This document shows, one piece after another, positions 3,461 to 41,719 of a DNA stretch of 64,000 nucleotides; position 1 is the stretch's first letter; each line of letters opens with the position of its first letter. The notes beneath the pieces are model-generated. The model was not told the origin of the DNA and did not search any database. It saw only the letters and a list, made by a program, of their open reading frames with translations. The stretch comes from Anaerovoracaceae bacterium (GTDB taxonomy: Bacteria; Bacillota; Clostridia; Peptostreptococcales; Anaerovoracaceae): NCBI GenBank assembly GCA_045643345.1, contig JAZUKP010000033.1, positions 454 to 64,453 on the forward strand, written 5' to 3'. The position numbers and the translations under genes are program-made.

Positions 3461-4741
3461 TCAATCTTTCAAACAGCCGATTGGTATTACTAATACTCCG
3501 TCTTCACGCTTGTATCCGTATTGTGTTCCGGTTATTACCAGTTTCAGATCAGGAGTCCGCAAAGGATTCTGTGATTCCTTTTTATTGTTTTCACGGATGA
3601 GTCGCTCCATTTCACACAAATGCTTTGCCCCTTCATCCACTTCTGATTGGCCCAACTTAAACTCAATCAGAGCGTATCTTCCATCGTTCAAATGCAAGAC
3701 AGCATCCGCTTCAAGACCAAGTCTGTCATGGTAGTATGAAATCGTGCCGTCATTACCAGATGAATAGATTTTTAAATCCCTGATACATAAACACTCAAAT
3801 AAGAACCCTAAGGTCTTATAATCCTTCGAAAAATATTCCGGTGACACGCCTAACGCGGCAGCCGCAATTGAAGGGTCGATGATGTTTCGTTTCTTTGATG
3901 ACCGGATGGATGTTTTTGACCGTATCGCGGGGCACCATGCGTCTATATCTTCCAGGATCATCAGCTTTTCAAAGCCAGAGACATAATCATAGTAGGTCTG
4001 TTTTGAAATGTCACAAGTTGCCGAAATATCCGCAAGTATTGTCTTAGCCTCTGCAAGCGTACAAAGATTCCGGGCATAAGACCTCAAAATCATCTTCGCC
4101 CATGTGGGATTTCTTTTCACTTTGTCAATGTTGGAAATATCAACCTCACAGGTCTGGGCAAACAGGTCCTTCGCGATGGATAGTTTTGCCTTATCTGTTT
4201 TTCCTCGCAGGCTTGCAGGCCAACCGCCCCGACATATCGCAAACTTAATGTTGTCAATCGTAAGATCGGATCTGCATCCTTCAAATGAGCCTGGATCGTC
4301 AAACAGCTGCGCCAGAGAAACAGTTCCGTTTGATTCCCCCGTTTCATACAAACTCATTGGATACATTTTAATCTTTGAAATTCTCAATGTTCCAGTATGC
4401 GGAGTTTCTACCGAAGCAGAACTGGATCCCGTCAGTATATACTGCCCGACTTCACCAGAATCATCTACATCCTTTCTGATTGCCCCCCATATTTTTGGGG
4501 CGTCTTGCCATTCATCGAACAGCCTTGGTTTTTCGCCTTTCAATAAATCAGACGGATGCGTGTTGGCAATAAGTAGATAGTTCTCCCGCTCATCTTCATC
4601 CTGAAATTCAATAAAACTTTTTGCTTTCATTTTTGCTGTTGTTGTTTTTCCGCAGCCCTTAGGTCCTATAATTAGCGCTGCACCAAATGCATCCAGTTTC
4701 TGTGAAAGCAGTTCGTCAGCAATTCTTTTTAGGTAGTTCAT
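3461..4741 (-). CDS. AAA-family ATPase (AAA_14/DUF4143-type)
   Basis: Walker A GPKGCGKT and the family-typical N-terminus MNYLKRIADELL. Start moved to ATG 4741 (GGAG 9 nt upstream). The -10 TATAAT (minus; 4771-4776) and -35 TTGCAA (4794-4799) lie inside repeat 1. Confidence 0.6.
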   Translation of the reverse strand: MNYLKRIADELLSQKLDAFGAALIIGPKGCGKTTTAKMKAKSFIEFQDEDERENYLLIANTHPSDLLKGEKPRLFDEWQDAPKIWGAIRKDVDDSGEVGQYILTGSSSASVETPHTGTLRISKIKMYPMSLYETGESNGTVSLAQLFDDPGSFEGCRSDLTIDNIKFAICRGGWPASLRGKTDKAKLSIAKDLFAQTCEVDISNIDKVKRNPTWAKMILRSYARNLCTLAEAKTILADISATCDISKQTYYDYVSGFEKLMILEDIDAWCPAIRSKTSIRSSKKRNIIDPSIAAAALGVSPEYFSKDYKTLGFLFECLCIRDLKIYSSGNDGTISYYHDRLGLEADAVLHLNDGRYALIEFKLGQSEVDEGAKHLCEMERLIRENNKKESQNPLRTPDLKLVITGTQYGYKREDGVLVIPIGCLKD

Positions 4742-4784
4742 CTTCTTTTTCTCCATGATTTTATGAGTATATTATATGCGCGAG

Positions 4785-4853
4785 TTGACAGATTTGCAAT
4801 AATCTGGTTGACAGATTTGCAATAACTTAATTGACAGATTTGCAAAAACGCAA
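4785..4853. repeat. three tandem 23-bp repeats TTGACAGATTTGCAAWAA
   Basis: Units start at 4785, 4808 and 4831. They overlap the -35 of the ATPase promoter and are a likely operator. Confidence 0.7.
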
Positions 4854-4909
4854 AACTATGGATTTTTTCTGCTAAGTGCGAAGAAAAACATGCAAAAGAG
4901 ATATTTTTA

Positions 4910-5046
4910 TTGATTTTTTTTAAATCATACAGTATACTGTACTTGTATCTTAATTTATGCTTTGCGAAGTATTATATCTTTGGCAAAGCCGCAAGTATTA
5001 TAATGATGTGATAATTTACGGATTCTATTGGAGAACCCGTTTTTTT
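4910..5046 (+). promoter_or_regulatory. structured leader copy A (promoter, covarying stem-loop, conserved box, terminator)
   Basis: Promoter TTGATT-17-TATACT (4910-4938). Stem-loop GCTTTGC-GAAG-tattatat-CTTT-g-GCAAAGC (4959-4989). Box GCAAGTATTATAATG. Hairpin ACGGATTCT-attg-GAGAACCCGT plus T6 (5018-5046), then GGAGGG and ATG 5071. Confidence 0.6.
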
Positions 5047-5070
5047 ATTGCAGAATTGAAGGAGGGAAAA

Positions 5071-5814
5071 ATGACATTGTTAAAAATCGTGGCACGCTTA
5101 GGTCTTTTCTTGTTGTTCTGGGTAGTATCTGGAATCACCTTTATGCAGTTCTTTGCATCTGATGGTGCAAAAAAAGCGTTTGCCTGGCTGAAGAAGTTCC
5201 GCAGCCGCATCGAAAATGCTGTGCGGGTATTTAAGGAGCCGGATAATACCAAGGTGCTGTTCGGCTATCCGTCGGTTGAGTCTTATTCGCGGGAAAGAAA
5301 TCAGAATCTGAATGCGATAAGACGCTGGGCGCAGGATGAAAGAAAAAATGGTCACACATTATCCTTTGAACTGAAGGAAGGAAGAACAAATCTGATGTTC
5401 TTAAAGTATGATGGGATTCGGTATGAAGCGGAAGTATTCTTTATTGAAGAGTACGGTACTTTATATGTAGATAAAATTTCTGCAAAACTGGCAAACGGCA
5501 GTTCGATTGAACTTGAAGGGAATTTACCCAAGAAGCCGAAGCTCGACATTAAGAAATTTTTCGAAAACGAAAATACCCAAAAATACTGTAGGGAAATCGC
5601 AGAAACCGTAAACGATTATGGAGAAGGAATGTTTTCCATATATAAATGTGCGGGCTGCGAAACCTATGCAGATATGGTGGCCCAGTACACTAAAGAAGAA
5701 ATTAAGGCCATGGAAGAAGAAGTATCCCACAGTTATAAGTCTTTCGAAGAATTAGCCGAAGGACTTTATCTGTGCAAAGGATACATTGAACAAGACGCCA
5801 TAACAGAAGAATAA
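5071..5814 (+). CDS. hypothetical membrane-anchored protein
   Basis: ATG 5071 follows GGAGGG. N-terminal TM helix LGLFLLFWVVSGITFMQFF. The 4957 start in the ORF track would translate the leader RNA. Confidence 0.55.
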   Translation: MTLLKIVARLGLFLLFWVVSGITFMQFFASDGAKKAFAWLKKFRSRIENAVRVFKEPDNTKVLFGYPSVESYSRERNQNLNAIRRWAQDERKNGHTLSFELKEGRTNLMFLKYDGIRYEAEVFFIEEYGTLYVDKISAKLANGSSIELEGNLPKKPKLDIKKFFENENTQKYCREIAETVNDYGEGMFSIYKCAGCETYADMVAQYTKEEIKAMEEEVSHSYKSFEELAEGLYLCKGYIEQDAITEE

Positions 5815-5831
5815 TTTGAGGAGGGAAAAAA

Positions 5832-6260
5832 ATGGCAACAAATCTTGTAGTTTTAACGGGTAGACTTACGGATAACCCGACCGTGCGTTACGGTGCACAA
5901 TCCCAGACAGCGGTAGCCCGCTTTAATCTTGCCGTAGACCGCGGCAAGAAAGACGGTAAAGATCTGGGAACGGATTTTCCGTCGATTGTCGCTTTTGGAA
6001 AAACTGCCGAAAACATCGAAAAATACTGCAAAAAAGGTTCCCTGGTACTCATCATGGGAAGACTTCAAACAGGTTCTTACGAAAAAGACGGCAGAAAGAT
6101 CTACACAACGGAAGTTTTGCTTGACCGTGTAGAGTTTCTGGAGAAGAAGAGTGATTCTGCTGCCGGCACACCGGCTCCTGCAGATGCAGCTCCGGCAAGC
6201 TCCGGTTCTGGGGATCCGCTTGGCGGAGTCAACCTTGACCCGGACGATATTCCGTTCTAA
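5832..6260 (+). CDS. ssb: single-stranded DNA-binding protein
   Basis: OB-fold SSB pattern (LTGRLTDNPTVRY, VAFGKTAENIEKYCKKGSLVLIMGRLQTGSYEKDG), a Gly/Pro/Ala-rich tail and an acidic tip DDIPF. Confidence 0.9.
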   Translation: MATNLVVLTGRLTDNPTVRYGAQSQTAVARFNLAVDRGKKDGKDLGTDFPSIVAFGKTAENIEKYCKKGSLVLIMGRLQTGSYEKDGRKIYTTEVLLDRVEFLEKKSDSAAGTPAPADAAPASSGSGDPLGGVNLDPDDIPF

Positions 6261-6277
6261 CAGCCATTTTAATGACA

Positions 6278-6317
6278 GGGGAAGATGCTTAAAAAGTATC
6301 TTCCCCGTAATTTTTTT
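6278..6317 (+). terminator. junction terminator 1 (hairpin, T7, fused to GAGGAGG)
   Basis: GGGGAAGAT-loop-ATCTTCCCC, then T7 running into GAGGAGG (6318-6324). Confidence 0.6.
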
Positions 6318-6335
6318 GAGGAGGATTTTAGAAAA

Positions 6336-6584
6336 ATGAATAGCAATTTAACACACTGCGTATCAACAAATTTAGGCGATGATTGTTCAAGTGAAATCAT
6401 CATTCACAGCGTCTGGACGCATATGATGCTGCCGAAAACCAACAGAGACCTTTTGCTGTTTTTAAACAACGGGGGCATTTCGATTGGCCGGTATGTAGGA
6501 GAAGATACCTGGATTGACAATAATGCCCTGGCAACAGAACATTACTTGTCCGATTCCGACGTGGGCCTGTGGATGTACTTGTAA
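6336..6584 (+). CDS. hypothetical protein
   Basis: 82 aa. ATG 6336 lies 11 nt after GAGGAGG. Confidence 0.5.
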   Translation: MNSNLTHCVSTNLGDDCSSEIIIHSVWTHMMLPKTNRDLLLFLNNGGISIGRYVGEDTWIDNNALATEHYLSDSDVGLWMYL

Positions 6585-6597
6585 GGAGGATATATGT

Positions 6598-7101
6598 ATG
6601 GATCTTCGGAAAAAATTCAAAGGTGTTCTGGAAGTTGCGTCTGGATATGTTACGGTTACAGACCCCGGATATGATGCTGATGAAGACTGCTTTATCCAGG
6701 TTACAGTAAAAAACGGCAGCTACCTCTGCTACACTTACGAAGCCGAAAAAACGGATTGGATTCAGAGAATGTGCCTGATGGATCAGGAAGATAACTTCTC
6801 CGAATCCGACTGGGAAATGATTGGATATCTTCCGGTAGATGCGGGCCTAATGTCTATCTGTGACGGACAAAAGCCGGATTACACCGATGCTGAATGGGAG
6901 ACATTCTGCGATATGCTTTCGGATAATATCTTTTACCATAAAGGCAAAAAAATGTTCGTTTCTCCGTCAGGGGAAGGGGACGGGTTCTATCCAGTGTATG
7001 CGGTTATGGACAAGGACAGAAATGCGATTGCAATAGAGATCCGCTTCCGTGACATGTGGATTAACCGTCAGGATGGGACCGTTCTCTACGATTTCTTTTA
7101 A
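6598..7101 (+). CDS. hypothetical protein (DUF4241-like, tentative)
   Basis: ATG 6598 lies 8 nt after AAGGAGGA. The C-terminal SPSGEGDGFYPVYAV motif resembles DUF4241-type proteins. Confidence 0.45.
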   Translation: MDLRKKFKGVLEVASGYVTVTDPGYDADEDCFIQVTVKNGSYLCYTYEAEKTDWIQRMCLMDQEDNFSESDWEMIGYLPVDAGLMSICDGQKPDYTDAEWETFCDMLSDNIFYHKGKKMFVSPSGEGDGFYPVYAVMDKDRNAIAIEIRFRDMWINRQDGTVLYDFF

Positions 7102-7141
7102 TTAAATTTTTTGGCTCCTTGTGGAGCTGTGCTTTTAGAAA

Positions 7142-7174
7142 GTTCAGCTCCTTTAGGGCTGAACAATTTTTTTT
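7142..7174 (+). terminator. junction terminator 2
   Basis: GTTCAGCtCC-ttta-GGgCTGAAC plus T8 running into GAGGAG. A second small hairpin GCTCC-ttgt-GGAGC lies at 7114-7127. Confidence 0.6.
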
Positions 7175-7186
7175 GAGGAGAAAAAA

Positions 7187-7942
7187 ATGGACGTAAACAA
7201 AATCAAAGAGTTGTATCCCGCCGGCACAAGAATCGTGCTGCTTTCCATGGGTGATGACCCTCGGCCGATTCCGCCGGGAACCAAAGGCACCGTAGACTAT
7301 GTGGATGATATCGGACAGCTGCATTGCAGCTTCGATAACGGAAGATACCTGGGGATTATCCCTGGGGAAGATGAATTCAAAAAGGTTTACTCTTCCGATG
7401 ATATCTCATTAAATCTTCGCGAGGACGGCAAACTTGAAATCTATCTTAAAAACTGCCTTGCAGCAGAAATTTCTGATGGAAAATATAGTCTGGAATTTGC
7501 TTTGGAAGTCTTGACCGGCATGGGTTATTATTTCGACGATGAGATAAAACCGTCTAATAAGATTACCGTATTGGTAATCGAACCCGGAAAAATCGCAAGA
7601 GTTGAAGAAGTAGAAACCGGGCTGAAAAGCTACCAAAAGCTCGTGGGCGGTGATATCGAAGGCTACTATCCCTTTGAGGAGGCGGTTTGCATTGTCTGTG
7701 ATGATTCCGGCAAATTCGATGGCAGCCTGCCAAACCGTGCAGTATATGACAGTGATGGGCGGATGCTGGATATCATCTTCGGAACATTCTTCATCTGCGA
7801 TTGCAGCGGGGAAGACTTTGGAAGTCTTTCTCCGTCTCAGATAGATAAATACAAAAAGATGTTTTTCTATCCGGAAAGATTTTTCGCCGCAGACGGGAAA
7901 GTTCAGGCAGTCAAAATTCAGACCAAGGAGGATTCGAAATGA
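7187..7942 (+). CDS. DUF4314/DUF3846-type conjugative-element protein
   Basis: The N-terminal YPAGTRIVLLSMGDDPRPIPPGTKGTVDYVDDIGQLHCSFDNG and C-terminal LVGGDIE...FGTFFICD modules are typical of Firmicutes ICE and plasmid leading regions. Confidence 0.55.
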   Translation: MDVNKIKELYPAGTRIVLLSMGDDPRPIPPGTKGTVDYVDDIGQLHCSFDNGRYLGIIPGEDEFKKVYSSDDISLNLREDGKLEIYLKNCLAAEISDGKYSLEFALEVLTGMGYYFDDEIKPSNKITVLVIEPGKIARVEEVETGLKSYQKLVGGDIEGYYPFEEAVCIVCDDSGKFDGSLPNRAVYDSDGRMLDIIFGTFFICDCSGEDFGSLSPSQIDKYKKMFFYPERFFAADGKVQAVKIQTKEDSK

Positions 7943-8106
7943 CAAAAGCCTTAAAAGAGAAAATCGAAGACATTGTGTTTGATTCATTGGCAGGGTATGT
8001 GTACGGCTATTACGGCGAGTCCGTGGAAGATGCCTGTTACGATTTGCACTCGCTTGCAAACTGCATCACAGAAGATCTGGCAAAGTTTCTTACAGAAGCG
8101 AAATAG
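7939..8106 (+). CDS. small hypothetical protein (55 aa, not in ORF track)
   Basis: ATGA start/stop overlap with 7187..7942. AAGGAGG lies 7 nt upstream. Translation: MTKALKEKIEDIVFDSLAGYVYGYYGESVEDACYDLHSLANCITEDLAKFLTEAK. Confidence 0.45.
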   Translation: MTKALKEKIEDIVFDSLAGYVYGYYGESVEDACYDLHSLANCITEDLAKFLTEAK

Positions 8107-8176
8107 CTTCTTACATTTCCTCCTTCGAAGGAAATAACAAAGCTTCATCGAAGCTGACATATATATCTATATATAA

Positions 8177-8210
8177 GATCAGCTTCGAAGGGGCTGGTCT
8201 TATTTTTTTT
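8177..8210 (+). terminator. junction terminator 3
   Basis: GATCAGCTT-cgaag-GGGCTGGTC pairs only with G-U wobbles on the + transcript. T8 runs into GAGGAG. Extra hairpins lie at 8115-8135 and 8141-8155. Confidence 0.55.
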
Positions 8211-8222
8211 GAGGAGAAAACT

Positions 8223-9050
8223 ATGAAAGAAGAAGCAAAAAGCCTTCTTACGATGAAGGGCACCCTGAAGAGTATTGCACGTGTATCGGATTACATCGAA
8301 GGGCTGATTGAAGCCGGCAATTCTGGGTTGGAAGAGAAGATCATCGAATCCAAGAAGACCATCAGCGATTGCTGGAAGTACATCACAAGCAAAGCAAAAG
8401 ACCAGGTAACAGATGGTTCTGCTTGCATTGAAGATGAAGAGGTCTACGGCTGGGCGGTGCATTACTTCGAAGAGCTGAGCCACCCGGACGGGTATGATGT
8501 GCCGAAGCCTGCAAAAAAGCCGGATGCAGCAAAAGCAGAAGATAAAACTGAGAAAAAAAGCCGCAAAAAGAAGGGCGAAGAGGTTAAGGCAGAAGAAAAA
8601 GCCGAAGAAAAACCTCCGATTATGGCTGAAGAAGTAAAGCCGGAAGCTGCTCCTGAAATGAAGGATGCAGCACCCGCGGAAACCGCAGAAGGTCTGCCGG
8701 ATGGCTTCATCAAGATTACCGAAGCCGAAGAAGATGTCTTCGCAGAGGAGGAATCTGAAGTTCTGGAAGGGCAGCTTGCTCTTTGCACTGATCAGCTTAT
8801 TCCCGAGCAGCCTGTTTCGGAGCCGGAAGCAAAAGAAGAAGAGGATCCTATCATTGACACCCCGGAAGAAGTGCTGGGCGAGAACCGCTGCTGCGCTGTA
8901 TGCGGGAAGAAGATGATGGATGCCTTCTCCGGGACCCCGGTAGAGACAATCCGCAAATGGACCGAAAGCTGGCTGCGTAATTACGGCGAAGTATTCTGCT
9001 GCAAAGACCATATGACGGAATTTCTTTCCAAGAAGGAGGCCGCTGTATGA
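8223..9050 (+). CDS. PcfK-like (AcrIIA9-family-like) protein with acidic linker and Cys-rich tail
   Basis: The N-terminal ~85 aa, ending DEEVYGWAVHYFEE, resemble PcfK-like proteins. An E/K/A/P low-complexity linker follows, then a C-terminal CCAVCGKK...FCCKDH. Confidence 0.45.
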   Translation: MKEEAKSLLTMKGTLKSIARVSDYIEGLIEAGNSGLEEKIIESKKTISDCWKYITSKAKDQVTDGSACIEDEEVYGWAVHYFEELSHPDGYDVPKPAKKPDAAKAEDKTEKKSRKKKGEEVKAEEKAEEKPPIMAEEVKPEAAPEMKDAAPAETAEGLPDGFIKITEAEEDVFAEEESEVLEGQLALCTDQLIPEQPVSEPEAKEEEDPIIDTPEEVLGENRCCAVCGKKMMDAFSGTPVETIRKWTESWLRNYGEVFCCKDHMTEFLSKKEAAV

Positions 9051-10378
9051 CGAAAGCAGAAAAAGAAAAGCTGGAAAAGGATACAGAGGAACTTGTTACT
9101 GCAAATCTTCCGATACCAAAGGAAATCAAAGCATTTTATAAAAAATGTGTTGAGCCTTCCATCGGCCGAGGATATGAATATGCGGAATACATTACCGAGA
9201 GGAAGGGAAGACTTCTTCAGAGGATATTCTGTTTTCAAGTTTTCGGGCTTGGCGGTAAAAAGCCGAGAGTCCGAGAAATTGCCCGCCGGTACGAAGGCGG
9301 AAAATTGGTCTGCTCCAATCTGATTGGCGGATATATGAGTAATCCATATCTTCCGGATACGGCGCACAGCGAGGAGATGCATGAGTCCGGCTGGGATCCA
9401 AAGTATGCGGGAGTCGTCCAAGGAAACACGAAGGCCAACTTCACGAATCCATATATTTGCGTCAACGAAAAAAGCATGATGAAGAAATATCCGTACTGTG
9501 CGTATGACCAGTACCGCGGATACCTGTGTATGTTCAAGTACTTGTGTGCATACAGGAAATACCCGTTAATTGAACTTCTGGTAAAAGCAGGATATGCCAA
9601 TTTTGTGCCGTTTGCCGGGTGGCTCGATATGAACGGAAAGACCGTCAGACAGATCTTCAAGGTAAAGCAGGATTTTGCAGCGGAATATCTGAAACACGGA
9701 AGCTCATACGATCTTTCGATTCTCCGGAAAAATGAGTGGATCGACAGCGCTGACAAGCTCGTCTCTTATGAGAAAGTCTTACATGATGATTTAAGGAGCA
9801 ACTTTTCAGATGAAGAACTCCGCTATGTGGCATGCCAGAGAAGTGATCTCCAGACATATAAGGACTATTTGAGAATTGCAGATTTACTTGCCTACCCTCT
9901 GCATGAGAAACGGTACAAATACCCGAAGAATCTGAAGGAAGCGCATGACGAAGCCAGCAAGACCTATAAGGTCATTCTCGATGCAAAAAACGATGCAGCG
10001 ATTAAGGCAGTTTCCGAACAATGCGGGAAACTTGCATTTGCAAAAAACGGATACTGCATATTCCCGCTTTCGTGCAGCCAGGATCTTATTGACGAATCCG
10101 CTGCTTTAAATCACTGCGTAAGAAGCTATGTAGACCGCGTGGTAAAAGGGGAGTCGCTTATTCTTTTCGTCCGTAAAGAATCGGATCCTGGAAAGCCTTT
10201 CGTTACGCTTGAACTGGTAAAGCCCAAGAACGTTGATACATCACTTCCGCTGGAAAAGCAGTTTACGAAGATATCCCAGGTACATGGATTGCGGAATGCT
10301 GCGCCGGATGCTGATACGGCAAAGTTCATCATGTCGTGGAAAAAAGAAAACCACCTGACCGGCTGGAAGGCCGCGTAA
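9047..10378 (+). CDS. PcfJ-like protein
   Basis: ATGA overlap with the upstream gene. The C-terminal AALNHCVRSYVDRVVKGESLILFVRK...PFVTLEL resembles the PcfJ-like family. The pcfK-pcfJ adjacency is known from pCF10. Confidence 0.45.
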   Translation: MTKAEKEKLEKDTEELVTANLPIPKEIKAFYKKCVEPSIGRGYEYAEYITERKGRLLQRIFCFQVFGLGGKKPRVREIARRYEGGKLVCSNLIGGYMSNPYLPDTAHSEEMHESGWDPKYAGVVQGNTKANFTNPYICVNEKSMMKKYPYCAYDQYRGYLCMFKYLCAYRKYPLIELLVKAGYANFVPFAGWLDMNGKTVRQIFKVKQDFAAEYLKHGSSYDLSILRKNEWIDSADKLVSYEKVLHDDLRSNFSDEELRYVACQRSDLQTYKDYLRIADLLAYPLHEKRYKYPKNLKEAHDEASKTYKVILDAKNDAAIKAVSEQCGKLAFAKNGYCIFPLSCSQDLIDESAALNHCVRSYVDRVVKGESLILFVRKESDPGKPFVTLELVKPKNVDTSLPLEKQFTKISQVHGLRNAAPDADTAKFIMSWKKENHLTGWKAA

Positions 10379-10430
10379 ATCCGCTCTGAAGGATTTGTAA
10401 TGCTCCCTCCGGGGGCTGAAGCTATCATAG

Positions 10431-10462
10431 CTGCAGCCTTCAGAGGGGCTGCAGAGTTTTTT
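10431..10462 (+). terminator. junction terminator 4
   Basis: CTGCAGCC-ttcagag-GGCTGCAG plus T6 into GAGGAG. The 24-nt hairpin is identical to 14172-14195. Confidence 0.65.
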
Positions 10463-10475
10463 GAGGAGAAGAATA

Positions 10476-10760
10476 ATGTTTACCGAAACAGATAAAAAGC
10501 TTCTATTTGAAATGGGAAAATCCAGCAGAGATATTCTTCAGATAGAACGTGCCTTCAATAAGACCAATTTCACTCTATTCTGGGAAAGATCGGGGAAAAA
10601 CTACTCAATCAGCGCAGCAAAAGCAAGTGAAATTCTCGGAAGAGCAGTATTCCTTTCTGGGCTTGCAAGAAGTACATTCCATTGGAGCGCAGTTCGTCTG
10701 GTTCCAGAGCAGGAAGGGAAGATGGTATATTTCGACAGTTCTGAGTTCTTCAGAAGTTAG
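10476..10760 (+). CDS. hypothetical protein
   Basis: 94 aa. ATG 10476 lies 7 nt after GAGGAG. Confidence 0.5.
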   Translation: MFTETDKKLLFEMGKSSRDILQIERAFNKTNFTLFWERSGKNYSISAAKASEILGRAVFLSGLARSTFHWSAVRLVPEQEGKMVYFDSSEFFRS

Positions 10761-10797
10761 TTTTACATAGCTCTAAAAGGAGCTGCAGCTTATATTT

Positions 10798-10833
10798 AGG
10801 CTCGGCTCCTTTGGGACCGGGCCTTCTTTTTTT
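10798..10833 (+). terminator. junction terminator 5
   Basis: AGGCTCGGCTCC-tttg-GGACCGGGCCT plus T-run into GAGGAGG. The upstream hairpin AGCTC-taaaag-GAGCT lies at 10769-10784. Confidence 0.65.
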
Positions 10834-10846
10834 GAGGAGGAATCAC

Positions 10847-11362
10847 ATGATAAAACATTCTATCTGGAGTAACGATGTATCTGAGATAGATGCAATCGCA
10901 CGAGGATTGATGCAGGAAGAGCCGGAGCTGTCCGAGAGGGAAGCCTGGGATCTTGCAGAAGATTACAACAGCGAGTATTTGCTGGATGAGCGCTACAATC
11001 TGAATATCTTGCTTCCAACAGACATCATCATAATTGCGGATCTGGGGCTGTGGAACGGGCGTGTCAAGGCATATAAGGAGCTTAACAGCTGCAACATCAA
11101 AAGCTGTCTTTACGCAAGTTCTGATGGAGAATATATGTCTTGGTACGTTGACGGCAATGCCGGCCGCGGGGACCTTCGGTGCGACGAAACACATCATGAC
11201 GGCACCAATCACTATCTGTATCGCAGATGGAAAGAAGGGATTTCCGAGGCAGCCAAAGAAAGTTTCTTGGAAAAAATCTACAACTCCACGGCAACCCCGA
11301 AAGATGTATCCCGGTATACAAAAAGCCTTGCACCTGAAATTGCAAAAGCCTACGGCTGGTAG
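10847..11362 (+). CDS. hypothetical protein
   Basis: 171 aa. ATG 10847 lies 6 nt after GAGGAGG. No motif recognised. Confidence 0.5.
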   Translation: MIKHSIWSNDVSEIDAIARGLMQEEPELSEREAWDLAEDYNSEYLLDERYNLNILLPTDIIIIADLGLWNGRVKAYKELNSCNIKSCLYASSDGEYMSWYVDGNAGRGDLRCDETHHDGTNHYLYRRWKEGISEAAKESFLEKIYNSTATPKDVSRYTKSLAPEIAKAYGW

Positions 11363-11421
11363 ATAGTCCGCTGAAAACGGACAGAAAAGCTCAGATAGAG
11401 CTGAATCATATTATTATTTTG

Positions 11422-11452
11422 GTTCGGCTCTTCGGAGCCGGACTGTTTTTTT
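11422..11452 (+). terminator. junction terminator 6
   Basis: GTTCGGCTC-ttcg-GAGCCGGAC plus T7 into GAGGAGG. Upstream hairpins lie at 11366-11382 and 11388-11402. Confidence 0.7.
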
Positions 11453-11467
11453 GAGGAGGATTATTTA

Positions 11468-11878
11468 ATGAGAGAAAACTTAAAGACGTTGCCCATATGT
11501 ACGTGGTTCGACGAAGAAATCGAAGTCTGCTTTGAGATTGGGGCCTACTTTTATGGCAACCGGCTGGCAGTCAATGCGCTGTGTCTGGAAGAAGGGGAAT
11601 ATGTTCCTTTTGCCGATCTTACCGTGAACCTTCCGGAAGAAGAATTATCCGGTCCCTGTTGTGCCTATCTTGACATCAACAATTTTTTCCGGGGGACATT
11701 GCTTGTGATGCAGGCTGGAATAGCGCAGCCAACCGGAAAGTATGGAAGATCCGGCTACTGCACTTATCCGGAATACGAATTTGACTTGGAAAAGCTGAAG
11801 GAGTACATCTATAATCTGGAAGAATTCGACGAAGTTAAGCGCGCGATTTTCGGAGAAGGAGGACGTGAAGATGCCTAA
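11468..11878 (+). CDS. hypothetical protein (DUF4313-like, tentative)
   Basis: 136 aa. It resembles small conjugative-element proteins (GRSGYCTYPEYEFD). The family call is low confidence. Confidence 0.4.
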   Translation: MRENLKTLPICTWFDEEIEVCFEIGAYFYGNRLAVNALCLEEGEYVPFADLTVNLPEEELSGPCCAYLDINNFFRGTLLVMQAGIAQPTGKYGRSGYCTYPEYEFDLEKLKEYIYNLEEFDEVKRAIFGEGGREDA

Positions 11879-12581
11879 TTACTGCACGTACGACCTCCGG
11901 GCAGAAGGGAAAAAGAAAGACCTTCTTACTCTTACGGATTGGCTTGCTGCGGATTATCACTATAACGAAGATCCGCCGGTTATAGTAAAAAAAGAAACCG
12001 GAATCGTTCCTACCGAGCATCACATCGGATACCGCGTATTCGACTTTTACCCGCTGGAATACGGAGAAAACTTCGAAAATGCGAGGCCGAATGAAGTAGT
12101 TAAAATGAGCGGTTACGGGGATGTAGCCTGGTCTGTTGAAACAACGATGTTCGACGGGCCGCACACCTATACCGAGGACGCGAAAGACTTGCCGAACAGG
12201 AAGAGTATTACCCTCCCGGACGCGTGCAGGATGCTGCATGTGCGAGCTGAAATTTACTCATTGGAAGAAGGCGTTGGTTTTGTGGAGCATTATCTTGTCT
12301 CCGAAGATGGAGAAGTTGTAGTCTCTGACTGCTTCGATTGTGCTGCCTTCTGGATTCCGGAGCAAAACACGCTTCAGGAAGTCGCCGAAGAGCATGATTT
12401 AGTACTGAAAGATGATAAGCTGTATTCTGCAGGAAGCGAAAAAAAACTGATCATTACAAAAGAGCAGTTTGAAGCGGTAAAAGACGCCGGCGAAGATATC
12501 TTCTATGTATGCGATATCGCAGATCCGGAATATCCTTGCTATATTCAGCAGGACTGGAGCATTGAGATACAATCTATCTAA
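11871..12581 (+). CDS. DUF1281/Api92-like ferredoxin-like domain protein
   Basis: Start moved to ATG 11871 (AGGAGGA 7 nt upstream). This gives the N-terminus MPNYCTYDLRAEG, which is typical of the family. 8-nt overlap with the upstream stop. Confidence 0.45.
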   Translation: MPNYCTYDLRAEGKKKDLLTLTDWLAADYHYNEDPPVIVKKETGIVPTEHHIGYRVFDFYPLEYGENFENARPNEVVKMSGYGDVAWSVETTMFDGPHTYTEDAKDLPNRKSITLPDACRMLHVRAEIYSLEEGVGFVEHYLVSEDGEVVVSDCFDCAAFWIPEQNTLQEVAEEHDLVLKDDKLYSAGSEKKLIITKEQFEAVKDAGEDIFYVCDIADPEYPCYIQQDWSIEIQSI

Positions 12582-12613
12582 AACGCAGGATATGCTGCGA
12601 TTCACAATTTTGA

Positions 12614-12645
12614 GTCTGCGGCATATCCCCGCAGACCTTGTTTTC
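12614..12645 (+). terminator. intrinsic terminator
   Basis: GTCTGCGG-catatc-CCGCAGAC followed by CTTGTTTTC. Confidence 0.6.
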
Positions 12646-12699
12646 TATCTATGATGTCTGAGTGAGTTTAGATATAATAGAGGATGAAAGGACGAAGAA

Positions 12700-14121
12700 A
12701 TGTTTTTCAAGAAATTAAAAAAACAAGTTCCCGATATCCCGGAAGATACACCTGCCATCACAAAAGAACAGGTACATCCGGAGCAAAGCACTTGCGACTT
12801 TATTATCCGGGCTTATGGCGGTCGGGCAAGCGCCCTGATCAGTGCTATGCCGCTTCATCCCTTAACCGGCGAAAATGCTTCGGGGGTATATCATCCAAGA
12901 TACAACAGAACTTATTATAATGATAAGATGATGCAGTTATTTAATCGTTTCGGTATAGACGAACAGCCCGGTTATTGCATCGGTTCGCTTAAAAAGAGCT
13001 TTGTTGGTTCTGAAAAGGATAGGAGCTGCAACAACAATTTTTCTATCGAAAAAGCATGTGATACGTATAATTGCATAGCCGAAATATTCGGATTTAATGC
13101 AGCAAGCGGGATCATAGAGCATCTTATTGTAGATGATACAGGGACAATTATTTTCTATAACCATCATGAAAATAAAAAGCCGTGGAATGAGTACCGCGAG
13201 GAGCTTCCCTGGATTATCAGTGATAAGATGGAAGAGTGTTTGCGCATCATTCATAATCTCCAAGAGATTGCAAAGAATCCCTCTGATGTTTACATCGACA
13301 GGGATTTTCTTTGGACGAAGGATGATACCATTTGCGGCCGGTACAGCATTGCCGAATTGAATGATCCTGATTATGACGGAATCCATGTCGTATCAAGTAT
13401 GCCGACGATGTACCGGGCCAAGATTGATTCCTTTGGACAATACATTGCTACCCCGAACACAACATGGGTCGAAGAGAATGATAAAAACAATATCCAAAGA
13501 TTTTGGGGAGCGGGAACTTATCTTTTTACGCTTTATGATACTTTTCTCGAAGAGCCGGCACGTCGTAGCTGCAATAACAACTATTCAATCTGCGACGAGT
13601 GCAAAAAAGAGGGTTCAACAATCGAACTTAACGGTCATAATCGTGAACTTCATTTCGAAGAACATATTATCATAAATAAGTTCGGAAAGCTGATTCTTTA
13701 CGAGAAGCATTCGCATAAAGAAGGTGAAGATACTGAGCATTATACGCCACTGATTTTGACGAAGGAATACACCCGGTTTTCAAAAGATTCAACAAGGCCG
13801 ATTCTTGTATGTCAAAAAACAAACAAGGAATATATAGTCACAAGTGATATATTTACCATCGGCTTCAATGAAAAAAATGATTTACGCATTGAGCAACCGA
13901 AAGAGGATCACTATGTCAGTAATTTCCATGCGACGCTGATTGTAATGCCGAATGGAAAGATAACCATATCTGACTATTCGCGCAACGGCACATTTATTTC
14001 AGGTAAAGGCTCCGAAGATGATTGCTTTGTTCGCATTCCGCCTAATATGGCTATCAAGATTGAAAACGGAATGTATGTAAAGTTTGCAAACGAAGTGTTC
14101 CAATTCTTTGAAAATTCTTAG
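12700..14121 (+). CDS. FHA-domain protein with internally duplicated N-terminal region
   Basis: The C-terminal FHA pattern is FTIGFNEKNDLRI...VSNFHATL...ISDYSRNGTFISG. Two N-terminal repeats are (D/R)RSCNNN(F/Y)SI, each followed by a beta-rich IIxxxG.IIFY/LILYEKH segment. Confidence 0.7.
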   Translation: MFFKKLKKQVPDIPEDTPAITKEQVHPEQSTCDFIIRAYGGRASALISAMPLHPLTGENASGVYHPRYNRTYYNDKMMQLFNRFGIDEQPGYCIGSLKKSFVGSEKDRSCNNNFSIEKACDTYNCIAEIFGFNAASGIIEHLIVDDTGTIIFYNHHENKKPWNEYREELPWIISDKMEECLRIIHNLQEIAKNPSDVYIDRDFLWTKDDTICGRYSIAELNDPDYDGIHVVSSMPTMYRAKIDSFGQYIATPNTTWVEENDKNNIQRFWGAGTYLFTLYDTFLEEPARRSCNNNYSICDECKKEGSTIELNGHNRELHFEEHIIINKFGKLILYEKHSHKEGEDTEHYTPLILTKEYTRFSKDSTRPILVCQKTNKEYIVTSDIFTIGFNEKNDLRIEQPKEDHYVSNFHATLIVMPNGKITISDYSRNGTFISGKGSEDDCFVRIPPNMAIKIENGMYVKFANEVFQFFENS

Positions 14122-14171
14122 TCTCTCTGAAAGACTAACAAAGCCCTCTTGGGCTGCAATAATTTTATTAA

Positions 14172-14205
14172 CTGCAGCCTTCAGAGGGGCTGCAGTTGTT
14201 TTTTT
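14172..14205 (+). terminator. junction terminator 7
   Basis: CTGCAGCC-ttcagag-GGCTGCAG (identical to 10431-10454) plus T-run into GAGGAG (14206-14211). Confidence 0.65.
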
Positions 14206-14220
14206 GAGGAGAAAAAGAAA

Positions 14221-14673
14221 TTGAGTTACTATTACGAAACAACAACAAAACTTGTAAGAGAAGAAAAGGAATTCTTATACGAACCAAAATGCACGAAAAT
14301 TTCAGATCTGGACGCAGCAAAGCAGTTTATTTTGTACCAGCTCATGCTTTCCGATAAACCTCAGGAAGAACTGTGGATCTTGATGCTTGACAATAAGCTC
14401 CATTTGATCGGGACCCAGATGATATCCAGAGGCAGCGTGAATCAATGCGCAGCCAACCCCGCTGATATTCTTCGTCCAGTAATTCTTTCCGGAGCGACAG
14501 GATTCATTCTCATACACAATCATCCTTCTGGGGATCCTACAGCAAGTGCCGAGGATAACAAACTTACCAAGACGATTAAAAGCGCATGCGAATTGCTTGG
14601 CGTGCAGTTGTATGACCACATTATTATCGGGCTTAACAACTTTTTTAGTTACAATGAGGCAGCACTGCTGTAA
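14221..14673 (+). CDS. radC: RadC-like JAB/MPN domain protein
   Basis: HNHPSGDPTASAEDNKLT JAMM motif with flanking RadC pattern (ADILRPVILSGATGFILIHNHPSG). TTG 14221 lies 9 nt after GAGGAG. The upstream part of the ORF-track frame is terminator sequence. Confidence 0.75.
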   Translation: MSYYYETTTKLVREEKEFLYEPKCTKISDLDAAKQFILYQLMLSDKPQEELWILMLDNKLHLIGTQMISRGSVNQCAANPADILRPVILSGATGFILIHNHPSGDPTASAEDNKLTKTIKSACELLGVQLYDHIIIGLNNFFSYNEAALL

Positions 14674-14709
14674 AATTGCTATTCATGCTCCTTTGGGGGC
14701 TGAAGCTAT

Positions 14710-14748
14710 GAAGGCCAAGCTCCTTTGGAGCAGGGCCTTCATTTTTTT
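14710..14748 (+). terminator. junction terminator 8
   Basis: GAAGGCC-AAGCTCC-tttg-GGAGCAG-GGCCTTC plus T7 into GGAGG. It is followed only by a 15-codon mini-ORF (14760-14807). Confidence 0.65.
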
Positions 14749-14911
14749 GGAGGTGTATTATGAAAAAGAAAATATATTGCGAGCCCAGTACGAATAGTAC
14801 GCTGTAACGTCTGTGATGTTTACAAGATTTGGTTTATGCGGTAGAATAGGAGTGACAAAACAACAAATGCTAACAAAGACAACAAAAGCTAACAAATACA
14901 ACACGGACGAT

Positions 14912-16042
14912 ATGAGAAATCCATTTACCCCAACTTTTGGCCATGTTCCAAGACAGATGGCAGGAAGAGAAGAAATCATAAACGAAATACTCAGCGGTTA
15001 TGAAAACGGCCCCGGAGATCCGAGCCTTACCACAATCCTTATCGGAGCAAGAGGTACCGGAAAGACGGCGCTTCTTTCCTACATAGCGAATGAAGCAGAA
15101 TCCGAAGGATGGATTGCAGTCAGCACGTCTTGCACCAAAGGCATGATGGAAGATATCTATGAGCAGACCATAAGAAAGTCTGAACACCTTCTGGATGAGG
15201 AAACCATGGGTCGTCTTTCAAGTCTTTCATTAAAGGTCAGCGCAGGGAAACTTGGGGCAGAAGTAGGATTCAAGTTTGATGAAAAAGAGAAAACGCTGAA
15301 CTGGAGAAGCCGAATTACGGTGATTATTGAGAAGCTGCATTCGTTAGATATCGGTCTTTTAATTACGATCGATGAAGTGAATCCAAAGCTGGATGAAATG
15401 GTGGAATTTGCATCGGTTTATCAATTGATAGCAAGGGAAAACTACCGCGTGGCATTGCTTATGGCGGGGCTTCCGCATAATGTGTCTCTTCTTACAAAGG
15501 ATACCAGCGTATCATTTTTGAGAAGAGCAAATCAAGTTTATCTTGGGCTTATCGAAGATTACGAAATCGAAGATGCTTTAAAAGAAACCGTAAAAATCGG
15601 TGGAAAAGAGATAAGTGATGAAGCAGCGCGCCGCGGCGCAGAAGCGATAAAAGGCTTCCCGTATATGCTGCAGCTGGTTGGATTTAGGGCCTGGGATAAG
15701 GCGAAAGATCGTACAAATATAACCATTGAGGATGTAGAAAAAGGGATTTCTCTTGCGGAAAATGATTTAAAAACAAGAGTTTTGAAATCCACTCTGGAAG
15801 AAGCATCAAAAAGGGAAATGGAGTTTCTGGAAGCAATGCTTCCCGATGAAAAGTTTTCTACAAGTGCGGAGATTGGGAAACGTCTTGGTTGGGAATCCGG
15901 ATATGTTTCTACTTACAAAAAAAGACTGTGCGATAAAGGAATTCTTGAAGAGATGCAGAAAGGTATATTTACCTTTGCTTTGCCGTTTTTGAAAGAATAT
16001 CTTCCTGAATTTATCGAAATGTATTGCGTGCAGCCAGAATAG
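14912..16042 (+). CDS. ATP-binding protein (archaeal-ATPase/ORC-like AAA with C-terminal wHTH)
   Basis: Family-typical N-terminus MRNPFTPTFGHVPRQMAGREEI, Walker A GARGTGKT and Walker B LLITIDEV. Alternative starts at 14867 and 14813. Confidence 0.6.
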   Translation: MRNPFTPTFGHVPRQMAGREEIINEILSGYENGPGDPSLTTILIGARGTGKTALLSYIANEAESEGWIAVSTSCTKGMMEDIYEQTIRKSEHLLDEETMGRLSSLSLKVSAGKLGAEVGFKFDEKEKTLNWRSRITVIIEKLHSLDIGLLITIDEVNPKLDEMVEFASVYQLIARENYRVALLMAGLPHNVSLLTKDTSVSFLRRANQVYLGLIEDYEIEDALKETVKIGGKEISDEAARRGAEAIKGFPYMLQLVGFRAWDKAKDRTNITIEDVEKGISLAENDLKTRVLKSTLEEASKREMEFLEAMLPDEKFSTSAEIGKRLGWESGYVSTYKKRLCDKGILEEMQKGIFTFALPFLKEYLPEFIEMYCVQPE

Positions 16043-16137: not shown

Positions 16138-16191
16138 TCAATGCATAAGGGCGTGTCAAAACATAGTGTTAAAACCATAGGAGTAAAAAAC

Positions 16192-16764
16192 GTGATTTAC
16201 GGTTATGCCAGAGTGTCAACAAAAGGACAGGAAGAAAATAACTCCTTGCAGCAGCAGGAGAACGAGCTTCGAACTGCCGGAGCGGTCGAAGTAATAAAAG
16301 AAGCCTTCACCGGTACGAAATTTCACAGACCAAAACTTGATTCCTTGCTGGATCAGATCCAGGAGGGCGATGTTTTGATTGTAACAAAGCTCGACAGAAT
16401 CGCCCGAAGCGCCAAAGACGGAATCACGATAATCGACTTTGTAATGGAGAAAGGTGCATCAATCCAGGTTCTTAACATGGGTACTTTCGACAACTCTCCG
16501 ATGGGCAAAGTCGTCCGGACCGTTATGCTCGGGTTTGCGGAATTTGAACGGGACATGATTGTGCAGAGGACACAGGAAGGAAAGGCCTTAGCAAGAAAAA
16601 ACCCGGATTTTGTTGAGGGTCGTCCGAGAAAATTCACAGACTTTCAGATAGAAAGCGCCTTGAAGCTTCTGGATGAAGGAAAACCCTACAAGGAAGTAGT
16701 AAAACTGACCGGGATCAGCAAAAGCACGCTGATCCGGGCAAAAAGACAGAAGAGTATAGAGTAA
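16192..16764 (+). CDS. serine recombinase (resolvase/invertase family)
   Basis: [13 protein letters not shown] catalytic Ser motif, [12 protein letters not shown] and a C-terminal HTH ([15 protein letters not shown]). GTG 16192 lies 8 nt after TAGGAG. Confidence 0.85.
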
Positions 16765-24665: not shown

Positions 24666-25303
24666 GGAGAATCCCTTTCGATATGATAAAACAAAAAAGA
24701 CCTAACACGACTTGATTATATCACAGGGACTACATAACCCAGTACAAAAAATACGCCAAGTCTGGGAAAAACACCGGCAAGGAAGGGGAAAGGAGGCGGG
24801 ATTTTAGGGGATTTAGGGCGGAATTTGCTCTACGCATGTAGAACAACTATTCCTAAAATGTAATTTTTGGGAAATGTTGCTTTCTTTGGTATAATTTGGC
24901 ATTTATGCCGGTAAAGATGAGCCAGGTAATCCTGGCTCGATTTTCTATTCAAACTATGAAAGTCAAATTTATTGTAACGCTGTTGCAAGGTTTAATCAAT
25001 TTAATTTTTTGATTTAGCCTTCGGAAAAATCGCCTGTTTCAGCCATTCTATTTTTTCTTTTGATATATATATCCTTGAATTTTCAACGAATTTCGTCTAT
25101 AATTTATTTGTTTCAAAGTATACCCGCTTTTTAGAAAAGCCCGGAGCCCCCATCCCTTATGCCTCCAGGCTTTTTCTTTTTCAATAATTGACCAATATTC
25201 CTTTTTATGAGAAAATATTCCCGGAGCTACCATAATACGGTAGGCGGTTTGCCCTCACCAGAGGGTGAGAACCCTCTGACAGAAATGAAAGGGGGTGATC
25301 AGA

Positions 25304-25405
25304 ATGAGCGATTTTGAGATTCTCAGCATCGTATTTGCTGTTTTAGGAATCGTTGTATCCATGCTGATTGCATGGATTAAAGAAATTAGTTCAAGAAAAA
25401 AATAA
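25304..25405 (+). CDS. holin-like type I toxin peptide, copy 1 (33 aa, not in ORF track)
   Basis: MSDFEILSIVFAVLGIVVSMLIAWIKEISSRKK has a single TM helix with a basic tail (Hol-Tox-like pattern). GGGGGTGA SD. Own promoter TTGACC-17-GAAAAT (25188-25216). Confidence 0.6.
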   Translation: MSDFEILSIVFAVLGIVVSMLIAWIKEISSRKK

Positions 25406-25482
25406 CCGCCGGACCTGACAAAACGGCGATTATTTTTATTCGCTTTTTTTAGGGCAAACCGTCTATCGGTAGCTCTTTTTCT
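25393..25482 (-). ncRNA. candidate antitoxin antisense RNA, copy 1
   Basis: Minus-strand promoter TTGACA-17-TATCAT (plus coordinates 25517-25489). The shared bidirectional terminator CGCCG-loop-CGGCG (25407-25428) has U-runs both ways, so the transcript overlaps the toxin 3' end. Confidence 0.45.
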
Positions 25483-25527
25483 GTATCAATGATAGCAAAT
25501 TTTATGAATTGTGTCAAGACATTGAAT

Positions 25528-25578
25528 TATCAAGCGCCGCAGTAAAACCCCTTGCTTTAGCTATGGGGAGTGTCAATT
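25528..25578 (+). repeat. solo IS605-type right-end fragment R3
   Basis: TTATCAAGCGCCGCAGTAAAACCCCTTGCTTTAGCTATGGGGAGTGTCAATT. It begins exactly where similarity between the two toxin repeat units stops. Confidence 0.55.
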
Positions 25579-25991: not shown

Positions 25992-26022
25992 GTACTAATA
26001 ATATCAAGTTTAAAAGGCTGTG

Positions 26023-41695: not shown

Positions 41696-41719
41696 ATTTG
41701 TAAATGAAAGGAGGAAAAA

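Follow-up and report, generated by a model that had tools for sequence, protein, structure and literature searches.

How does RNA polymerase travel through a block of plasmid genes in which one cassette after another is preceded by a terminator-like hairpin? The question is raised by a 64,000 nucleotide stretch of DNA (the window) from an Anaerovoracaceae bacterium, part of an 84.6 kb NCBI contig (JAZUKP010000033.1), in which 14 co-oriented genes form an ssb-to-radC block between positions 5071 and 14673. Establishment and anti-defence genes, of which this block may hold several, need to be expressed fast but briefly, and their control in Gram-positive and gut-anaerobe plasmids is largely unknown. 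A sequence-only reading of this DNA had proposed that every junction in the block has the same build, a terminator whose T-run continues directly into the Shine-Dalgarno (SD) sequence of the next gene. We find that build at eight of the 14 gene boundaries (J1 to J8), for which the coordinates proposed were exact on sequence check; five other boundaries are tight or overlapping gene pairs without a hairpin, and at one (12582-12699) a variant junction has a hairpin whose broken T-run does not continue into an SD. Our analysis is in silico and concerns paralogous junctions of one plasmid lineage. It leads us to prefer, tentatively and with rather less than even confidence, serial transcription attenuation on the sense transcript, decided locally at each junction.

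Serial terminator-SD junctions between ssb and radC

At each of the eight boundaries a GC-rich hairpin is followed by six to eight T (T6-T8), then by GAGGAG(G/A) (GGAGG in J8) and, after 6-11 nt, by the start codon. The terminator stems are 9-13 bp long, with energies of -11.6 to -21 kcal/mol, and all eight junctions have the attributes of an intrinsic terminator, i.e. a GC-rich stem-loop with a U-tract of at least 5-6 U within 0-3 nt. Each junction folds well beyond dinucleotide shuffles (z -3.4 to -7.8), and a terminator scan of the window independently ranks six of the junction hairpins among the strongest. The joint TTTTTTGAGGAG occurs in exactly seven copies in the 64 kb window, all on the + strand between 6312 and 14211 and each directly behind a GC-rich hairpin, and at no more than one mismatch there are nine matches in the window against 1.08 expected from shuffles. 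A combined scan for hairpin, T-run, SD and open reading frame (ORF) found the build nowhere else in the window outside the array. The junctions are as follows, with c denoting the terminator hairpin, b the hairpin upstream of it and a an extra hairpin at the stop codon.

6278-6324, + strand: J1; hairpin 6278-6306 with a 13-bp stem (-19.4 kcal/mol), T7, GAGGAGG, ATG 6336; without an upstream competitor (z +0.4)
7113-7180, + strand: J2; b 7113-7128, self-complementary spacer, c 7142-7164, T8, GAGGAG, ATG 7187
8116-8216, + strand: J3; a 8116-8136, b 8141-8156, AT-palindromic spacer, c 8175-8201 (hairpin 8177-8199; three G·U), T8, GAGGAG, ATG 8223
10377-10468, + strand: J4; a 10377-10396 (overlaps the stop codon), b 10402-10416, spacer hairpin AGCTATCATAGCT, c 10431-10454, T6, GAGGAG, ATG 10476
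10768-10840, + strand: J5; b 10768-10784, spacer, c 10798-10826, T7, GAGGAGG, ATG 10847
11366-11459, + strand: J6; a 11366-11382, b 11389-11403, A/T spacer, c 11420-11445 (hairpin 11421-11444), T7, GAGGAGG, ATG 11468
14118-14211, + strand: J7; a 14118-14138 (includes the stop codon), b 14142-14155, spacer, c 14170-14197 (hairpin 14172-14195), T7, GAGGAG, TTG 14221
14687-14753, + strand: J8; b 14687-14700, c 14710-14740 (the strongest, -21 kcal/mol), T7, GGAGG, ATG 14760; without a competing fold (z +0.3)
12584-12636, + strand: variant junction Jy; two hairpins, 12584-12599 and the terminator-like 12614-12636, broken T-run (CTTGTTTTCT), no SD fusion

The last of the series differs in what it precedes. 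T7-GGAGG is present at J8, but it leads only to a 15-codon ORF and not to a further cassette of ordinary size. J8 is probably the end of the operon, and it probably marks a conserved end of the array, because a relative (contig L057) keeps the order array, ATPase-sized gene, resolvase. In the window itself J8 is followed by a promoter-like site (14819-14847) and then by genes for an AAA ATPase and a resolvase.

The structures are consistently biased towards the sense strand. There are 12 G·U pairs across the eight terminator stems, and the antisense RNA fold of the terminator is weaker at all eight junctions, for example in J3, where the wobble-paired stem noted in the sequence-only reading has three G·U pairs and energies of -14.1 kcal/mol (sense) and -5.9 kcal/mol (antisense). 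Whole-junction RNA folds are likewise better on the + strand in every case, by 4-18 kcal/mol, and contain 41 G·U pairs but a lone A·C single mismatch. Calculated with DNA parameters, the difference between strands has the same sign and is small (0.3-2.5 kcal/mol), so that folding of single-stranded DNA (ssDNA) is physically possible on either strand. The sense-strand bias, taken with the fusion of U-tract and SD, argues for the RNA-level role that had been suggested for these structures. Between terminator and start codon there is no space for a promoter, and downstream genes therefore need read-through, again as first proposed; promoter-like sites in the region are at chance (44 found, 38.5 expected). 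Internal promoters can be rejected as a general explanation, as matches are at chance and the sole array candidate, at 10/12 (11786-11815), lies within a cassette.

Nested palindromes and alternative folds

Hairpin b is present in J2-J8 with the consensus (A/T)GCYC-loop-GRGCTG, in which the terminal GCTG is invariant (7/7), and has energies of -4.9 to -9.3 kcal/mol. In J2-J7 an A/T-rich spacer separates b from c and, except in J6, is self-complementary, giving a central stem of 4-6 bp. Beyond what the sequence-only reading described, these six junctions are nested palindromes: in the predicted folds, b and the spacer can zip together with the 5' arm of c. The duplexes of that arm with the complementary 3' arm of b have energies (-10.6 to -17.8 kcal/mol) comparable to those of the terminators, and pairing within a junction is stronger than pairing across junctions (permutation p = 0.011). 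The statistics are per-junction folding and duplex tests; MAFFT alignments of such short hairpins were out of register for pair counting. Compared with dinucleotide shuffles, pairing of the upstream sequence to the 5' arm of c has z scores of -2.4 (J2), -3.8 (J3), -0.9 (J4), -5.2 (J5), -3.7 (J6) and -4.0 (J7), i.e. the b:c complementarity is significant in J2, J3, J5, J6 and J7 and weaker in J4. The same test is not significant for J1, for J8 or for 11 controls, comprising seven other terminators of the window and four leader terminators. The b:c helix of J3 has 10 perfect Watson-Crick base pairs (read from the sequence) against the three G·U of its terminator, and that of J5 passes through both loops; helices of this extent are in keeping with an inverted, palindromic relation rather than with simple direct duplication.

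As long as the 3' arm of the terminator has yet to be made, J2-J7 have as their minimum-energy fold the zipped b:c helix, with the spacer hairpin enclosed. The predicted probability of the terminator stem in its context is 0.97 in J1 and 0.99 in J8, 0.61 in J5, 0.25 in J7, 0.08 in J6 and about 0 in J2-J4, and after zipping the 3' arm of the terminator is partly free in J3, J4 and J7. The variant Jy has the same zipped arrangement of two hairpins in its minimum-energy fold, and an arm-only duplex test on it was not significant (z -1.3).

The long junctions J3, J4, J6 and J7 have, in addition, hairpin a at or overlapping the stop codon, and when folded from stop to start each forms a single long hairpin that spans the whole intergenic region including the SD; in J6 the entire region between stop and start codon is one hairpin (z -7.75). 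Pairing of stop-adjacent sequence with the U-tract and SD is significant only in J6 (z -4.2) and marginal in J2, J3 and J7 (p ~0.06), and such predicted pairing would suggest translational coupling. Counted from the stop codon, the first hairpin begins at -2 to +13 nt in J2-J8 and at 17 nt in J1. The stems of the a hairpins at 10377-10396, 11366-11382 and 14118-14138 differ, and a CUGAA loop motif is common to all three; in J4 and J7 the a loop, CUCUGAA, would pair without mismatch to UUCAGAG, the loop of the terminator. Judged by this complementarity, the loop could take part in a kissing interaction or be bound by a protein.

The junctions look like paralogous copies that have spread within this plasmid lineage. 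Two shared modules reported earlier are exact, 24 nt being identical at 10431-10454 and 14172-14195 and 15 nt at 10411-10425 and 14695-14709. J4 is a chimera in which a b of the J8 type is joined to a c of the J7 type exactly at the centre of the palindrome. This joint is what would be expected had the radC cassette circularised; gene conversion among paralogous junctions explains it equally well.

Transcription through the array

The array is headed, as had been stated, by leader copy A, one of four conserved promoter-plus-leader copies in the window (4959-5071, 41591-41722, 46516-46643 and 58411-58546), which stand before the ssb array, an AAA_5/VWA gene pair, a YqaJ/RecD2 block and the genes of a type IV secretion system (T4SS). 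All have the same layout of sigma-70-type promoter, hairpin, conserved single-stranded stretch, terminator-like hairpin, T-run, AAGGAGG and start codon, with a transcribed part of ~125 nt. The elements of leader A are these:

4910-4938, + strand: promoter-like site, TTGATT-17-TATACT
4959-5046, + strand: leader A; hairpin 1 (4959-4989), AGTATTATAATGATGTG-TAATTT, imperfect terminator-like hairpin (5019-5039), T7; then AAGGAGG and ATG 5071

The sigma-70-type sites that copies B, C and D have at the aligned position are stronger than this promoter-like site. The consensus fold of the four copies is two hairpins, and the outer stem of the leader hairpin covaries among them (GCTTTGC/GCAAAGC, CTCAC/GTGAG, GCTTG/CGAGC, GCTTC/GAAGC). 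No Rfam family matched at gathering thresholds in the whole window, or at E<=1 in 4700-15000, and there are no internal terminator-SD junctions in the operons under the other three copies (~41.6, 46.5 and 58.4 kb). In concept the leader copies play the role of EGeRS1 and EGeRS2, the multi-copy establishment-gene regulatory sequences of pLS20-family plasmids (PMC8708921, PMC6294495), being likewise a conserved, structured multi-copy sequence before several operons that blocks read-through. Unlike EGeRS, with which they share no sequence similarity, they are transcribed over ~125 nt from an evident sigma-70-type promoter, and the comparison covers the leader, not the junctions. Between leader A and a divergent DUF4143 ATPase gene there are three direct repeats, (G/A)TTGACAGATTTGCAA(T/A)AA, spaced by 22-24 nt (4784-4848), which overlap a minus-strand promoter-like site (4799-4771) and which may be operator or iteron-like binding sites.

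The terminator and zipper elements, their strandedness and their junction-specific complementarity are established in silico. The reading that we tentatively favour builds on them as follows. The ssb-to-radC block would be, with the same tentative confidence, one sense-strand transcription unit on a conjugative plasmid, and its cassette boundaries would be RNA-level intrinsic terminators placed immediately before the next SD. Six of the eight boundaries (J2-J7) would act as attenuators, choosing between a terminating fold (b plus c) and a zipped fold in which the terminator is lost or altered; with two alternative folds per boundary, read-through into the next cassette would be decided locally, junction by junction. 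J1, a plain strong terminator after ssb, would step expression down, and J8, equally plain, would close the operon. The net outcome would be a graded, possibly conditional expression of the cargo, together with insulation from spurious transcription. Graded attenuation, one of the alternatives offered by the sequence-only reading, comes close to this, and local antiterminator-like folds are found at five to six junctions. The zipped fold would give read-through, and the trigger of the switch could be a terminating ribosome, a candidate because the first hairpin of J2-J8 begins so near the stop codon, or else binding of some factor to the conserved hairpin b.

There is a close precedent for such an element. 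The same three-part anatomy is an experimentally shown attenuator, cATT, in 5' leaders of the pLS20 family (described in July 2026), where a weak upstream stem-loop and a central stem precede a terminator with a complementary 5' arm, the antiterminator forms by default, the terminator lies 0-26 bp from the SD, and the upstream stem-loop, the most conserved part, is proposed to bind a factor (PMC13401043). In the present junctions, too, a weak upstream stem-loop is the best-conserved part and has a 3' arm complementary to the 5' arm and loop of the terminator, that pairing could extend the central stem, the two conformations are of similar energy, and the U-tract abuts GAGGAG (J1-J7) or GGAGG (J8), a terminator-SD spacing within that range. 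The differences are of number, place and size: cATT is a single copy in a 456-nt leader upstream of conAn1, whereas here there are 6-7 compact copies of 85-116 nt between establishment-type genes, not in a 5' leader, with central stems of 4-6 bp in place of the long ext-SL-3, no sequence similarity, and no PF17362 protein found among the window ORFs searched. By analogy, then, the junctions would work like cATT, and we would not file them as members of the cATT family. The array as a whole would be a variant within two known themes, terminator-based attenuation of the zipper type and multi-terminator conjugative operons.

Several points weigh against attenuation by zipped folds. Since b and c are alike, their complementarity could stem from local duplication or from template switching at a quasi-palindrome. 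The central stems are short (none in J6) compared with the long ext-SL-3 of pLS20, and zipped J2 and J6 pair the 3' arm of the terminator upstream, leaving next to the U-tract a long hairpin that might go on terminating. A local antiterminator is missing from J1, though 12 genes lie behind it. Masking ribosome footprints in silico showed no consistent direction of switching across the junctions, and ribosome-coupled attenuation is regarded as uncommon in Firmicutes. Lastly, the collections searched gave no close relative in which covariation could be seen independently, the best PcfJ relative being 48% identical.

Processive antitermination, in which polymerase from leader A, or polymerase modified by a plasmid or host factor, would pass all eight terminators while spurious transcripts are stopped, has several points in its favour. 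Eight strong terminators stand in series with internal promoters not above chance, the bare and strong J1 must be passed for those 12 genes to be reached, the terminator-like hairpin of the leader itself has to be overcome, and the local stems of 9-13 bp are shorter than the 15-bp stem of TerR, a terminator that resists conAn (PMC10325885). The mechanism is established, together with multi-terminator operons, in Gram-positive conjugative elements through conAn of pLS20, pCF10 and others (PMC8191782, PMC8955417) and canT of Tn916 (PMC11658703); the terminators of those operons are thought to suppress spurious transcription and allow differential expression, and the present array resembles them as a long operon of such an element with many internal intrinsic terminators. 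However, its terminators lie in an establishment block rather than in the T4SS operon and are stereotyped, SD-fused and provided with local alternative folds, and no ConAn1 protein, conAn2-like RNA or canT-like element was identified in the window. Among the window ORFs searched there is no ConAn1 (PF17362; array proteins at E<=0.01, other ORFs of at least 120 aa at E<=0.001), NusG/LoaP-like or Q/N-like protein, and a conAn2-like region of 260-600 nt is absent, the leader measuring ~125 nt and ssb being separated from the first gene by 17 nt. The nut-like leader that the sequence-only reading had credited with licensing the polymerase gains no specific support, because no antiterminator protein or Rfam element was found and the same leader heads three operons that are free of internal terminators. 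The antiterminator-like folds at five to six junctions would in addition be superfluous, and their zipped long stems could even resist a processive polymerase (PMC10325885). Taken together this makes processive antitermination unlikely in our view. Slightly less likely still is an account in which the terminators are constitutively leaky and simply grade expression (SSB high, distal genes low), while hairpins b and the palindromic spacers have no function and arose as paralogous junctions underwent duplication, gene conversion or template switching. The junctions are mosaics and plainly paralogous to one another, the likeness of b and c yields complementarity automatically, and tests of outer complementarity and ribosome masking are inconsistent across junctions, all of which would suit leakiness. 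Against it, complementarity is greater within than between junctions, the b:c helix of J3 and J5 extends through the loops past the stem of b, as fits an inverted relation and not a direct duplication, the terminator is made less stable by G·U pairs in comparison with the alternative helix, and the spacers are self-complementary as well.

Two further explanations set transcription termination aside. The junctions might be modules of RNA processing or stability, at which RNase III cuts hairpins of 30-40 bp or RNase Y cuts the A/U spacer, splitting the polycistronic RNA into cassette mRNAs with hairpin b as protection at the 3' end and c plus the strong SD GAGGAG at the 5' end. Early transcripts of phages T7 and SP82 are processed by RNase III at junction hairpins, and those early operons, with their anti-restriction genes and a large hairpin at each gene junction, resemble the array; their hairpins have no U-tracts behind them and are not terminators. 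J3, J4, J6 and J7 do form one long, nearly continuous stop-to-SD hairpin, and the pairing of stop-adjacent sequence with U-tract and SD noted above would fit. J1 and J8 have no long hairpin, though, and the uninterrupted T6-T8 behind a compact GC hairpin, common to all eight, is a signature of termination for which processing has no need, so that we regard this as very unlikely. Least probable is a function of the palindromes in DNA, either as priming or ssDNA-promoter signals on the transferred strand (T-strand) or as attC-like recombination joints. Both strands do fold with DNA parameters, differing by 0.3-2.5 kcal/mol, the layout is cassette-like, and J4 has the joint expected from a circularised radC cassette. 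Anti-defence islands of leading regions, which are driven by Frpo/ssi ssDNA promoters and for which serial terminators are not reported (PMC11541004), are similar in their co-oriented ssb, small uncharacterised genes and typical domains. Because leading genes normally use the T-strand as template (PMC11541004), the T-strand would be the weaker-folding one, whereas the sense strand is favoured at all eight junctions, and the ssDNA alternative of the sequence-only reading is disfavoured on these grounds. The stems contain no -35/-10 pair, these junctions are missing from homologous cassettes elsewhere, and the fusion of T-run and SD would be left unexplained. Integron arrays share promoterless cassettes, imperfect palindromes between them and one upstream promoter. 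The attC reading was nevertheless rejected: there is no GTTRRRY core (or RYYYAAC partner) in any junction and no IntI or other integron-type integrase adjacent, the sole nearby recombinase being a serine resolvase (16141-16764), and the palindromes are U-tract terminators with a strand bias that fits RNA.

Serial local attenuation can also be carried further than we would ourselves. The array would then consist of modular attenuator cassettes, each with its own compact, riboswitch-like zipper junction, all flipped by one trans factor that recognises the conserved b hairpin (AGCYC-N-GRGCTG), or by the ribosome at the stop codon; polymerase would traverse the whole block when the plasmid enters a new host and be stopped at every boundary later, and the palindromes would double as joints for cassette exchange, with J4 (b of J8 and c of J7) as the example. 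We think this whole scheme distinctly unlikely. Were local attenuation itself correct, the zipper-type attenuator, a type first reported in 2026 and solely from leaders, would also be portable between genes, and an operon would be throttled at each cassette boundary, beyond promoter control. Seven natural variants of 85-116 nt would be at hand for dissecting how G·U pairs and spacer stems tune terminator against antiterminator. The stereotyped terminator-SD joint would offer a search signature for such arrays, as well as a ready insulating part for synthetic operons.

Cargo, plasmid context and relatives

The 14 genes encode, in order, a 247-aa protein, SSB, an 82-aa ORF, a DUF4241 protein, a DUF4314+DUF3846 protein, a 55-aa ORF, PcfK, PcfJ, a 94-aa ORF, a 171-aa ORF, a DUF4313 protein, a 236-aa ORF, an FHA-domain protein and RadC. 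They are distributed over the array thus:

5071-6260, + strand: first cassette; 247-aa protein (5071-5814), function unknown, N-terminus hydrophobic, followed by SSB (5832-6260)
6336-7101, + strand: 82-aa ORF and DUF4241 protein (Pfam)
7187-8106, + strand: DUF4314+DUF3846 protein (Pfam) and overlapping 55-aa ORF
8223-10378, + strand: PcfK-like and PcfJ-like proteins (Pfam), genes overlapping
10476-10760, + strand: 94-aa ORF; no family matched (Pfam, PHROG, NCBIfam)
10847-11362, + strand: 171-aa ORF (orf171), member of a large uncharacterised family
11468-12581, + strand: DUF4313 protein (Pfam) and overlapping 236-aa ORF
12700-14121, + strand: 473-aa protein with a C-terminal FHA domain (Pfam); GC lower, at 0.40
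14221-14673, + strand: RadC-like JAB protein, TTG start (Pfam, E 7e-37)
14760-14807, + strand: 15-codon ORF (MKKKIYCEPSTNSTL) behind the SD of J8, read from the sequence; an unfilled slot or what is left of a former cassette

Pfam supports SSB, DUF4241, DUF4314+DUF3846, PcfK, PcfJ, DUF4313, FHA and RadC, and thereby most of the cargo named in the sequence-only reading (SSB, DUF4314/DUF3846, PcfK, PcfJ and RadC); its DUF1281-like label for 11871-12581 finds no support in Pfam, PHROG or NCBIfam. PHROGs and NCBIfam added nothing for the array proteins without known function, and orf171 has 1156 homologues with a best identity of 56%. SSB, RadC, PcfK/PcfJ, DUF3846/DUF4314 and DUF4313 are candidates for cargo of the leading-region type, and their domain content gives the array an establishment or leading-region flavour, with a putative anti-defence role. 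The 17-nt gap between the 247-aa gene and the SSB gene contains TTTGAGGAGG and no hairpin. Before the FHA gene, at 12582-12699, a TATAAT-containing stretch and a weaker SD follow the broken T-run of Jy, and this gene may be a later insertion with its own promoter.

Pfam annotation of the window ORFs identifies a large plasmid of Firmicutes type, its closest DNA and protein neighbours being gut Clostridia, e.g. Subdoligranulum, Monoglobus, Vescimonas and Ruminococcus. The landmark genes recognised by Pfam include:

16141-16764: serine resolvase, the only recombinase near the array
52336-53775: Rep3 initiator
60748-63261: VirB4/TraG-like T4SS ATPase

The window also encodes two ParA ATPases, a topoisomerase, a RecD2-like helicase, a YqaJ nuclease, the AAA_5/VWA pair and an IS605-family TnpB, and the same annotation recognised no relaxase or oriT within the 64 kb. 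Six iterons of 22-25 nt (TCCGTACTAAATGTAGCA) upstream of the Rep3 initiator gene (51870-52287) are probably the replication origin, and dense AT-rich repeats with a period of ~12 nt (ATATATAAAAGA-like) between the two parA genes (56775-57129) are probably the partition centromere.

Related loci, ~0.9 Mb in all, are almost devoid of the terminator-SD build. Among 56 loci (775 kb, from genome and metagenome contigs) with PcfJ relatives of 24-36% identity there is one weak case of terminator, SD and ORF. The nearest PcfJ relatives by protein search (39-48% identity, contigs L057-L062) have a backbone of PcfK-PcfJ, resolvase, AAA_5/CobT, YqaJ and RecD2 in common and no array of these junctions, only isolated single builds, one in L060/L061 (the same sequence) and a weaker one in L062. 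Contigs with orf171 homologues carry tightly packed arrays of small ORFs without such junctions. PLSDB gave no match to 4900-14900 by megablast or to the concatenated junctions by distant blastn, and a pattern scan of IMG/VR gave 11 isolated single matches and no arrays. As the build is missing around homologous genes elsewhere, the junctions do not travel with the genes. Relatives L057 and L059 (GC 34%) have multi-copy leaders of their own, long and highly structured, before several operons including that of ssb (L057 3990-4181 and 12284-12555; L059 1025-1451 and 16934-17505), each finishing in a long-stem terminator and a ribosome binding site. Multi-copy leaders thus seem to be a trait of this plasmid group, and serial junctions do not.

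Some features lie apart from the array. Terminator hairpins are binding targets of proteins of the ProQ/FinO family, and because of this a small protein with a phage ProQ C-terminal-like domain (29610-29990, - strand), which adjoins the IS605-family OrfB/TnpB gene (30685-31827), might, speculatively, be a candidate junction-binding factor. A non-coding repeat of ~320 nt occurs in two tandem copies (25206-25531 and 25722-26040) that are 79-91% identical and 509-516 nt apart. The protein encoded at 63258-63830 has an identical copy on a 573-bp contig (JALNLU010120265.1) of a highly fragmented assembly, GCA_024500515.1, and the same plasmid is probably present in that second sample.

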